Assembly (NCBI GenBank): GCA_951406725.2
Contig: OX597815.1
Span: 59,768,001 to 59,832,000, forward strand
Reading direction: 5' to 3'
Length of the DNA stretch: 64,000 nucleotides
DNA from: Octopus vulgaris
Taxonomy: Eukaryota
The position numbers and the translations under genes are program-made. Below, one piece after another: positions 13,507 through 55,233 of the stretch. A model generated the notes under the pieces. The model did not search any database. It was not told the origin of the DNA and saw only the letters and a program-made list of their open reading frames with translations. The first letter of the stretch is position 1. Every line of letters begins with the position of its first letter.

Positions 13507-14350
<844 letters not shown>

Positions 14351-19551: not shown

Positions 19552-19700
19552 TATAGAGAGTGGTCACTATATTGATCACTCTAGCACCAGTAAATCCAAA
19601 AGGTTTCAACCACGAAAAATACATGTTTCCCATGAAAGCCGGTACGACTGTTAGCTCACACGGACAGGGCAAATAAAAAATAACAAAAATACAGATTATT

Positions 19701-19776
19701 TTGGGACAATTGTTTCGCTATTAATGAATTAAATGTAATATTACTTACAATAATCCATTTGTAGCTCTTCAGCCAA
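19701..19776 (-). ncRNA. Type I hammerhead ribozyme, canonical core
   Basis: TTGG-CTGAAGA-GCTA...TAGC-GAAA-CAATT-GTC-CCAA. Confidence 0.88.
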
Positions 19777-20699
19777 GACTATCTGGATGAAATCCACTCA
19801 ATCACACGCCAGATTTTACCATAACGATAAATACGCGTGCGGTTCAATTGATTACATCGGACGTTATAATTCAAATGCCCCAACCAACAGCGCGCCAAAC
19901 TCTCACGGAAAAGAAATACAGCATTTAGAAATAAATGCAGCATAATTATAATTAATTAATAAGGGTGAGAGAATTAGATACTAATTTAATAGTATATTTA
20001 TTCCACACCAAGTGGCCTAGTGCTACGAGAAACCTGGATTATTATAATATTTTATAACATATTATAATATTTTCACAAAATAAATATAAGAGAGTGGTCA
20101 CTATATTGATCACTCTAGCACCAGTAAATCAAAAGGTTTCAACCACGAAAAATACATGTTTCCCATGAAAGCCGGTACGACTGTTAGCTCACACGGACAG
20201 GGCAAATAAAAAATAACAAAAATACAGATTATTTTGGAAATAATCTGTATTTTTGTTATTTTTTATTTGCCCTGTCCGTGTGAGCTAACAGTCGTACCGG
20301 CTTTCATGGGAAACATGTATTTTTCGTGGTTGAAACCTTTTGGATTTATTGGTGCTAGAGTGATCAATATAGTGACCACTCTCTTATATTTATTTTGTGA
20401 AAATATTATAATATGTTATAAAATATTATAATAATCCAGGTTTCTTTTCGTAGCACTAGGCCACTTGGTGTGGAATAAATATACTATTAAATTAGTATCT
20501 AATTCTCTCACCCTTATTAATTAATTATAATTATGCTGCATTTATTTCTAAATGCTGTATTTCTTTTCCGTGAGAGTTTGGCGCGCTGTTGGTTGGGGCA
20601 TTTGAATTATAACGTCCGATGTAATCAATTGAACCGCACGCGTATTTATCGTTATGGTAAAATCTGGCGTGTGATTGAGTGGATTTCATCCAGATAGTC

Positions 20700-20775
20700 T
20701 TGGCTGAAGAGCTACAAATGGATTATTGTAAGTAATATTACATTTAATTCATTAATAGCGAAACAATTGTCCCAA
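20700..20775 (+). ncRNA. Type I hammerhead ribozyme, canonical core
   Basis: TTGG-CTGAAGA(20704)-GCTA...TAGC-GAAA-CAATT-GTC(20769-20771)-CCAA. Confidence 0.88.
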
Positions 20776-21062
20776 AATAATCTGTATTTTTGTTATTTTT
20801 TATTTGCCCTGTCCGTGTGAGCTAACAGTCGTACCGGCTTTCATGGGAAACATGTATTTTTCGTGGTTGAAACCTTTTGGATTTACTGGTGCTAGAGTGA
20901 TCAATATAGTGACCACTCTCTTATATTTATTTTGTGAAAATATTATAATATGTTATAAAATATTATAATAATCCAGGTTTCTCGTAGCACTAGGCCACTT
21001 GGTGTGGAATAAATATACTATTAAATTAGTATCTAATTCTCTCACCCTTATTAATTAATTAT

Positions 21063-32279: not shown

Positions 32280-32290
<11 letters not shown>
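31986..32290. repeat. ~300-bp foldback palindrome abutting (TCTA)n
   Basis: TTTAAGAGACAGAATC...GATTCTGTCTCTTAAA, centred near 32145. Confidence 0.85.
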
Positions 32291-32377
<87 letters not shown>

Positions 32378-32676
32378 ATATATATATATGTATATATATG
32401 TATATATATATGTATATATATGTATATATATGTATATATATATATGTATATATATGTATATATATATATATGTATATGTATATATATATGTATACATATA
32501 TATGTATATGTATATATATATATGTATATATATATGTATATATATACATGTATATATATGTATATATATATGTATATATATATATGTATATATATATGCA
32601 AATATATATGTGTGTATATATATATATGTATATATATATGTGTGTATATATATATGTATATATATGTGTGTATATA

Positions 32677-32727
<51 letters not shown>

Positions 32728-32728
32728 G

Positions 32729-32786
<58 letters not shown>

Positions 32787-33068
32787 ATTAATTAATAAGG
32801 GTGAGAGAATTAGATACTAATTTAATAGTATATCTATTCTACACCAAGTGGCCTAGTGCTCCGAGAAACCTGGATTATTATATTATTTTACAATATATTA
32901 TAATATTTTTACAAAATAAATATAAGAGAGTGGTCACTATATGGCTCACTCTAGCACCAGTTAATCCAAAAGGTTTCAACCACAAAAATACATGCTTCCC
33001 ATGAAAGTTAGTACGATTGTTAGCTCACACGGACAGGGCAAATAAAAAATAACAAAATACAGATTATT

Positions 33069-33147
33069 TTGGGACAATTGTTTCGCTATTAATGAATTAA
33101 ATGTAATTTTACTTACAATTAAAATCCACTTGTAGCTCTTCAGCCAA
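33069..33147 (-). ncRNA. Type I hammerhead ribozyme
   Basis: TTTTGG-CTGAAGA-GCTA...TAGC-GAAA-CAATT-GTC-CCAAAA. Confidence 0.88.
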
Positions 33148-33603
33148 AACTATCTGGATGAAATCCACTCAATCACACGCCAGATTTTACCATAACGATA
33201 AATACGCGTGTGGTTCAATTGATTACATCCGACGTTATAATTCAAATGCCCCAACTAACAGCGCGCCAAACTTTCACGGAAAACAAATACAGCATTTAGA
33301 AATAAATGCAGCATAATTATAATTAATTAATAAGGGTGAGAGAATTAGATACTAATTTAATAGTATATCTATTCTACACCAAGTGGCCTAGTGCTCCGAG
33401 AAACCTGGATTATTATATTATTTTACAATATATTATAATATTTTTACAAAATAAATATAAGAGAGTGGTCACTATATGGCTCACTCTAGCACCAGTTAAT
33501 CCAAAAGGTTTCAACCACAAAAATACATGCTTCCCATGAAAGTTAGTACGATTGTTAGCTCACACGGACAGGGCAAATAAAAAATAACAAAATACAGATT
33601 ATT

Positions 33604-33682
33604 TTGGGACAATTGTTTCGCTATTAATGAATTAAATGTAATTTTACTTACAATTAAAATCCACTTGTAGCTCTTCAGCCAA
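33604..33682 (-). ncRNA. Type I hammerhead ribozyme
   Basis: Same motif as 33069, 535 bp away. Confidence 0.88.
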
Positions 33683-34096
33683 AACTATCTGGATGAAATC
33701 CACTCAATCACACGCCAGATTTTACCATAACGATAAATACGCGTGTGGTTCAATTGATTACATCCGACGTTATAATTCAAATGCCCCAACTAACAGCGCG
33801 CCAAACTTTCACGGAAAACAAATACAGCATTTAGAAATAAATGCAGCATAATTATAATTAATTAATAAGGGTGAGAGAATTAGATACTAATTTAATAGTA
33901 TATCTATTCTACACCAAGTGGCCTAGTGCTCCGAGAAACCTGGATTATTATATTATTTTACAATATATTATAATATTTTTACAAAATAAATATAAGAGAG
34001 TGGTCACTATATGGCTCACTCTCAATTGAACCACACGCGTATTTATCGTTATGGTAAAATCTGGCGTGTGATTGAGTGGATTTCATCCAGATAGTT

Positions 34097-34175
34097 TTGG
34101 CTGAAGAGCTACAAGTGGATTTTAATTGTAAGTAAAATTACATTTAATTCATTAATAGCGAAACAATTGTCCCAA
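34097..34175 (+). ncRNA. Type I hammerhead ribozyme
   Basis: TTGG-CTGAAGA(34101)...GAAA-CAATT-GTC(34169-34171)-CCAA. Confidence 0.88.
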
Positions 34176-34327
34176 AATAATCTGTATTTTGTTATTTTTT
34201 ATTTGCCCTGTCCGTGTGAGCTAACAATCGTACTAACTTTCATGGGAAGCATGTATTTTTGTGGTTGAAACCTTTTGGACTAACTGGTGCTAGAGTGAGC
34301 CATATAGTGACCACTCTCTTATATTTA

Positions 34328-34393
<66 letters not shown>

Positions 34394-34478
34394 GTATGTA
34401 TGCATACGTGTATGTTAATTCATACGCATTTTTCTTCTCCGTTGTTTTTGTTTCTGTCCGTTTTTTCCCTTCTCAATC

Positions 34479-34514
34479 CTTTCTGTTGAAGAGCATAGGC
34501 TTGAAACGTCAAAG
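34479..34514 (+). ncRNA. Minimal hammerhead (CTGTTGA core) in a solo PLE terminal repeat (~34410-34610)
   Basis: CTTT-CTGTTGA-A-GAGC.ATAG.GCTT-GAAA-C-GTC-AAAG; surrounding sequence resembles 19065-19250. Confidence 0.62.
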
Positions 34515-34617
34515 ACTTCCCCATTCTTCCCGAGCGTCAAACCAATATACCTGCTTGTTGTTCCTTCACATGTCTACGTCTTTCAGTTTTTGTAAGATTG
34601 AACTATATATTTAAATA

Positions 34618-49539: not shown

Positions 49540-53145
<3,606 letters not shown>

Positions 53146-54890: not shown

Positions 54891-55233
54891 TATTTTTTCA
54901 TAGCTCCCATGGTTACCGAGATAATTTACTATAATCATACTCTTGTGTTTATGAATGGGAAAGGAAGGGGTGATAGATAAATAACGAAGGAAGGAGTGAT
55001 GTCATATTTTTCATAGCTCCCATGGTTACCGAGATAATCTACTATAATAATACTTTTGTGTTTATGAATGAGAAAGGAAGGGATGATAGATAAATAAGGA
55101 AGGAAGGGGTGGTGTCATATTTTTTCATAACTCCCATGGTTACCGAGATAATCTACTATAATAATACTCTTGTGCTTATGAATGGGAAAGGAAGGGGTGA
55201 TAGAGGAATAAGGAACGACGGGGTGATGTCATA
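54891..55233. repeat. ~114-bp tandem repeat, three copies
   Basis: CTCCCATGGTTACCGAGATAAT recurs three times. Confidence 0.9.

Follow-up and report, generated by a model that had tools for sequence, protein, structure and literature searches.

A candidate non-LTR retrozyme with two-armed, probably Penelope-type insertions in the genome of Octopus vulgaris

Metazoan non-LTR retrozymes are dispersed repeats of low GC content, in which non-coding units lie head-to-tail and carry a type I hammerhead ribozyme with a short palindromic stem III (Cervera and de la Pena 2020, PMC7229834; Li, Clavereau and Pollet 2026, bioRxiv 10.64898/2026.07.22.740005). The copies are accompanied by target duplications of more than 4 bp, and their mobilisation is proposed to depend on Penelope enzymes and on tandem cDNA templated by RNA circles (PMC7229834; bioRxiv 10.64898/2026.07.22.740005). 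Hammerheads whose stem III is short and palindromic reportedly cleave as dimers and spare monomer circles (PMC4209133). Circle-templated copying of retrozymes has the status of a proposal (PMC7229834, PMC4209133), for which Li, Clavereau and Pollet note limited empirical evidence; they also report that eight of nine predicted Xenopus retrozyme dimers failed to cleave in vitro (bioRxiv 10.64898/2026.07.22.740005).

The Penelope-like elements that bear an endonuclease, such as Hydra, Neptune and Poseidon, form partial tandems with an inverted, 5'-truncated arm and a tail at one end (PMC8557442, PMC3846280, PMC11167929). They insert into TA microsatellites, harbour a hammerhead in their repeat and start from two internal sites (same sources). 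In vitro, both target strands are cut and extended by a Penelope enzyme that is predicted to be a dimer and initiates at two internal sites of the RNA; it mostly used unprocessed RNA, and ribozyme cleavage was not required for insertion (PMC11167929). The origin of tandem and inverted Penelope-like insertions has been called open (PMC8557442). Non-autonomous Chlamys elements, e.g., MRC1, are non-coding Penelope dependants with insertions of multiple copies joined head-to-tail; the Chlamys clade lacks canonical hammerheads, and these elements share 3'-end sequence with their autonomous partners (PMC8557442).

The 535-bp repeat family described here resembles all of these systems. It displays every feature of animal non-LTR retrozymes that can be examined in sequence, namely a hammerhead in each tandem unit, no open reading frame (ORF), no LTR pair, a GC content below 50%, dispersed copies and target duplications of more than 4 bp, and on these grounds it is very probably a new non-LTR retrozyme. 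The family is set apart from the metazoan non-LTR retrozymes by an insert of ~45 nt in stem II of the hammerhead. Its unit of 535 nt is larger than the 170-400 nt circles of PMC7229834 and falls within the 51-972 bp range of bioRxiv 10.64898/2026.07.22.740005. The accessible text of these two sources yielded no description of a two-armed layout with two fixed ends (for PMC7229834, no match to “inverted”). Unlike Hydra, Neptune and Poseidon, the family has no ORF and a tail of about 130 nt rather than 30-40 nt, many units are possible in both of its arms, and its sequence shows no homology to those of the autonomous families examined; from the Chlamys elements it differs in its hammerhead and in its 3' end. 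No printed account of the 535-bp family or of a twin-primed rolling-circle insertion was found in the openly accessible literature that was searched, and related families could be listed in the supplements of bioRxiv 10.64898/2026.07.22.740005.

The locus and its family

The window, i.e., the whole stretch of 64,000 nucleotides that was analysed, holds two loci of the family. The locus under study (32,283-34,391 with its flanks; Table 1) contains 1,240 bp (32783-34022), or 2.3 units, that repeat exactly at a period of 535, as seen at all 705 positions compared. An inverted arm of 307 bp follows (34022-34328), which corresponds to unit positions ~132-438 and has one mismatch against unit 1. The total insert of 1.55 kb is flanked on both sides by TA microsatellites. 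The unit has a GC content of 32% and a longest ATG frame of 54 amino acids, and is non-coding; no LTR pair is present in the layout. A bacterial promoter scan remained at chance level and is irrelevant here.

The initial annotation had placed two minus-strand hammerheads 535 bp apart, delimiting a monomer at 33073-33607, and motif search and folding agree with this. It had described units that are alike within the locus and unlike those of locus 1, and indeed 23 of 532 sites differ between the loci (4.3%), including the motif it had quoted. The tandem 535-bp units that it reported stand; the inverted arm with a third hammerhead had been overlooked. To the right of the locus lies another high-copy repeat (34417-34560), which has deep coverage in four sequencing runs, and a 113-bp tandem repeat with three copies and 91% matches is located at 54891-55233 of the window.

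Table 1. Coordinates of the retrozyme features in the window.
Feature	Positions	Strand	Basis
TA/TATG microsatellite, left target flank	32283..32786	.	
Long arm's outer end S1 (unit position ~1), where reverse transcription presumably starts	32783..32790	-	
Unit 1, 535 bp, non-coding; sense strand is minus	32785..33319	-	
Hammerhead 1 (type I), cleavage predicted at 33073/33072	33062..33154	-	core, fold, covariation
Predicted cut-to-cut monomer, 535 nt, candidate circle	33073..33607	-	fold
Unit 2, identical to unit 1	33320..33854	-	
Hammerhead 2 (type I), cleavage predicted at 33608/33607	33597..33689	-	core, fold
Third unit, incomplete (positions 1-168), forming the inner 5'-truncated end of long arm	33855..34022	-	
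Inverted arm, outer end at site S2	34022..34328	+	alignment to unit 1
Hammerhead 3 (type I) of the inverted arm, cleavage predicted after 34171	34090..34182	+	
TA microsatellite, right target flank	34320..34391	.	
Locus 1 (L099), another subfamily of the family, with one S2 and one S1 arm	19555..21061	.	

An exact 25-mer from the unit has 2,112 matches in the 2.8-Gb genome, which corresponds to at least 2,112 unit copies and, as a rough guess, to ~600-1,000 loci. We examined 109 loci: 79 were ranked by similarity to the two loci of the window, and the other 30 were chosen by their order of position along contig C1, within its first 97 Mb. Simple two-armed insertions account for 64 of these loci, five were complex and set aside, and the other 40 are mostly single-armed. 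The 535-bp family is a young, dispersed and protein-free mobile repeat. An older sister family with a unit of ~530 bp and 64% identity (2,801 first-look candidates) features compensatory changes in stem I and adopts the same two-site layout in the 25 loci examined (L140-L164); a further copy lies at L097:4659-5320. At one sister-family locus (L152), the truncated inner end of an arm adjoins GGTTAG telomere-like repeats at an interstitial site.

The hammerhead motif

The minus-strand motif is composed of a CUGAAGA core, stem I, the long stem II, GAAA, a 2-bp stem III with an AAUU loop and a GUC cut site, and its core is intact in 282 of 308 units. Rfam gave no hammerhead match for the unit, neither at the gathering score nor at E<=10, and accordingly the sequence of the core, the fold and covariation are the grounds for calling it a hammerhead. 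The insert in stem II may be the reason why Rfam misses the motif; three weak snoRNA matches from the same search (E 2.9) were dismissed as chance. Across 22 distinct sequences 93% of the cells are paired, a level reached by none of 500 shuffles. All six stem-I pairs are altered on both sides, mostly between the 535-bp family and the sister family, and because most of the signal reflects this one split the covariation counts as few events.

Folded as a circle, the monomer attains -144.8 kcal/mol, compared to -106.0 +/- 4.5 kcal/mol for 40 shuffles. The strong fold is not specific to the sense strand (z -10.0 and -5.6 for sense, -6.2 and -5.9 for antisense). The unit carries a type I hammerhead motif that is predicted to cleave itself. 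A lineage with a CCGAAGA core (16 units; L029, L039, L046) has still spread and includes a locus of 12 units.

Insertion ends, targets and autonomous relatives

The two arms of an insertion end outward at two different, fixed positions of the unit, termed S1 (position ~1) and S2 (~120-146), which are separated by about 130 nt. This combination is found in 61 of the 64 simple two-armed loci; the remaining three possess one truncated or odd end, and in no case (0/64) is the same site used twice. Both ends are 3' ends of the hammerhead-sense strand, situated 288 and ~158 nt downstream of the cut, and therefore copying appears to begin within the RNA. TA-like DNA adjoins 122 of the 128 outer ends, and target duplications of 13-14 bp are readable at two insertions outside microsatellites (L066 and L094). 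With a partial tandem, an inverted 5'-truncated arm and a one-sided tail, the family bears the footprint of Penelope-like insertion. The initial annotation had judged an old satellite the poorer fit; local tandem duplication of such a satellite is excluded by the dispersal of the copies, the two fixed ends, the TA targets and the target duplications.

Autonomous Penelope-like elements (PLEs) reside in the same genome. A young and very abundant Hydra-like family (L175-L194) harbours a 717-aa ORF with CxxC and CxH motifs as described for Hydra; the protein has no Pfam match, and its likeness to Hydra rests on these motifs. The two-site rule holds in all 15 Hydra-like loci with both ends called, the sites being 67-71 nt apart (an indel made three further loci uncallable). 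The element forms head-to-tail units of 2.59 kb in both arms, e.g., at L178:1-9501, bears a CCGAAGA hammerhead-like motif and diverges by 0.20% within loci as compared to 1.25% between loci. A young two-ORF family (L120-L134, e.g., L123:944-6160) encodes a 479-aa ORF1 and a 781-aa RT/GIY-YIG protein, has a 504-bp pLTR and a ~40-bp tail and is sited in TA repeats. Decayed Penelope RT/endonuclease fragments were detected by tblastn within the window itself, at 51418-52613 (-) and 13788-14291 (+).

The 535-bp unit includes no ORF for RT and GIY-YIG and hence is not an autonomous Penelope-like element. Searches with blastn and a family profile revealed no homology to the unit in 40 GIY-YIG loci and 30 Hydra-like loci, and these 70 PLE-bearing loci yielded just AT-rich noise and one nested sister-family copy. 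Local alignment of the unit to the non-coding region of the Hydra-like element was no better than with shuffles, and tblastn found no retrozyme arm joined to PLE coding sequence. Since no detectable sequence is common to the unit and the Hydra-like element, the partner enzyme is assigned by class only. Both the retrozyme class of the family and its Penelope-type insertion are, in our judgement, highly probable.

The inner ends show some regularities of their own. In short two-armed insertions the two arms frequently stop within ~20 nt of each other (L196, L201, L213; Hydra-like L184, L186, L194), which looks as if the trailing enzyme had reached the leading one; an apparent contrast in co-terminal arms between the retrozyme (1/50) and the Hydra-like element vanished in the position-ordered sample. 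Near S1, 17 of 184 inner ends are found where 10.7 are expected (L199, L206, L215, L218, L085 and others), possibly reflecting joining via AT-rich microhomology.

Template and mechanism of insertion

In 32 position-ordered loci, units diverge by 0.25% within the same arm, by 0.41% across arms and by 2.5% between loci. Divergence within loci is thus 6-10 times lower than between them; the initial annotation had named equality of the two as evidence against its reading. The ranked set, from which 9 fragments were dropped and in which arm ends and one homopolymer were masked, gave 0.09-0.19% within and 0.58-0.65% between loci; assembly polishing could even out units. The 65 loci with at least three units contain 80 locus-wide variants, 91 singletons, 16 variants of intermediate frequency and four present in all units but one. 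Twelve of the 80 locus-wide variants are private, meaning absent from the other sampled loci, and eight of these occur in both arms. The position-ordered set comprises 5 private fixed, 50 singleton and 2 intermediate variants. Such a U-shaped spectrum is what one would expect if a single monomer had been amplified upon insertion and the units had then acquired point mutations.

An alternative in which a single unit was inserted and then recently duplicated in tandem on the spot, or evolved in concert as a satellite, would agree with the intermediate-frequency variants, which attest to some exchange among units. However, the outer ends are fixed at S1 and S2 and the inner ends are scattered, variants are common to the inverted arms, and unshared singletons far outnumber the intermediate class. 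Local tandem duplication is largely refuted by these patterns, and we regard this whole group of explanations as very improbable.

Among 184 arms 38 reach three units or more, the longest extending over 12.6 units, and 417 unit copies run through the cut site. No indel occurs at this site in 325 passes of one set or in 102 passes of the other (2 loci are common to both). Inner-end positions look uniform (KS p=0.74, n=131), and 8 of 184 fall within 6 nt of the cut site as against 4.5 expected. A template without a free 5' end fits most insertions and, given the monomer bottleneck, a circle is the simplest such template; we consider it the probable usual one, with considerable room for doubt. 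The initial annotation had proposed reverse transcription going more than once around one circular RNA. Copying of a single monomer over more than one lap is the best fit, with a circle as the candidate form of that monomer, and two of the 64 two-armed loci look templated by a cleaved linear RNA.

At these two loci (L099, which is locus 1 of the window, and L224), both arms stop no more than 6 nt from the cut site (0.04 such loci expected; post hoc P=7e-4). One arm of L099 ends exactly at the cut and the other 3 nt short of it, after one full lap, a pattern that fits a cleaved linear dimer as template. In L054 and L081 both arms have a variant in their second unit, the arrays of L029 and L047 are mosaics, and a variant in L207 is present in 4 of 13 units; variants confined to part of an array call for a multimer as template, for switching between templates or for conversion at a later time. 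For the loci that end at the cut site and those with part-array variants, a mixed template pool or later conversion is needed. A 3-nt change at the cut site of L081 was rejected as a ligation scar, as it matches an inverted copy of a nearby CAATTG stretch, and we read it as a quasi-palindrome change.

Some of these loci would also be expected if, with the same element and enzyme, long and homogeneous master arrays usually supplied the template as a linear transcript of several units, either uncleaved or cleaved in part, with no circle needed. Both arms of L099 and L224 end at the cut site, the variants in L054 and L081 are in register, arrays of 12-13 units exist as possible masters, and in vitro insertion is independent of ribozyme cleavage (PMC11167929). 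An uncleaved transcript of a homogeneous master array would likewise leave neither scar nor stop. Yet a linear multi-unit template does not explain single changes that are fixed over 5-8 units and both arms beside singletons (L062, L068, L080, L092, L222), and arm length could only decrease along a lineage unless otherwise regenerated. We rate this source of the template as rather unlikely. When non-LTR enzymes jump between templates, bases tend to be gained or lost. If the enzyme jumped repeatedly from the 5' end to the 3' end of a cleaved linear monomer, tandem cDNA would arise without a covalent circle; this would produce the monomer bottleneck, and jumps between different RNAs would account for the mosaic arrays L029 and L047. 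The cut site, however, has no indel scar, and the excess of ends at the cut is little (8 vs 4.5 of 184); such jumping appears improbable.

Sequencing runs were also inspected. The stretch was found in 20 of 22 run rows, none on record as RNA, and the four runs inspected consist of contigs only. In one of them, a contig of 565 nt equals one unit plus 30 bases and presumably would be a closed loop if the assembly word length were 31; it was not counted as a sign of an RNA circle, as tandem DNA gives the same shape and the RNA label of the run is a guess.

The explanation that we favour as a whole, and with the same measured confidence as the circle, is a two-armed insertion by a Penelope-like enzyme, probably on a circular monomer with two start sites. 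Arrays would be transcribed from the minus strand, adjacent hammerheads would cleave as dimers, and the released monomer would be ligated. The two strands of the target would be cut by a Penelope RT-endonuclease, probably acting as a dimer, which would prime one cDNA at S1 and one at S2 on one RNA. Both cDNAs would lap the template a variable number of times, and the joining of their 5'-truncated ends would create head-to-head arms. A minority of insertions would originate from cleaved linear RNA.

The class itself is known, and what makes the 535-bp family valuable is its evidence, at the population level, about the copying of such RNAs by Penelope enzymes. As its RNA is short, two start sites are mapped and insertions number in the hundreds, the questions of tandem and inverted arms and of the circle become testable in vitro and by population analysis. 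Tentatively, and at somewhat less than even expectation, we propose that Penelope enzymes insert by two-ended rolling-circle reverse transcription, where a dimer on one hammerhead-made circle would use a fixed site for each strand and both subunits would lap the template. If true, this would hold for retrozymes as well as for the autonomous Hydra-like element, and a single mechanism would account for pLTRs, tails, tandems and inversions.
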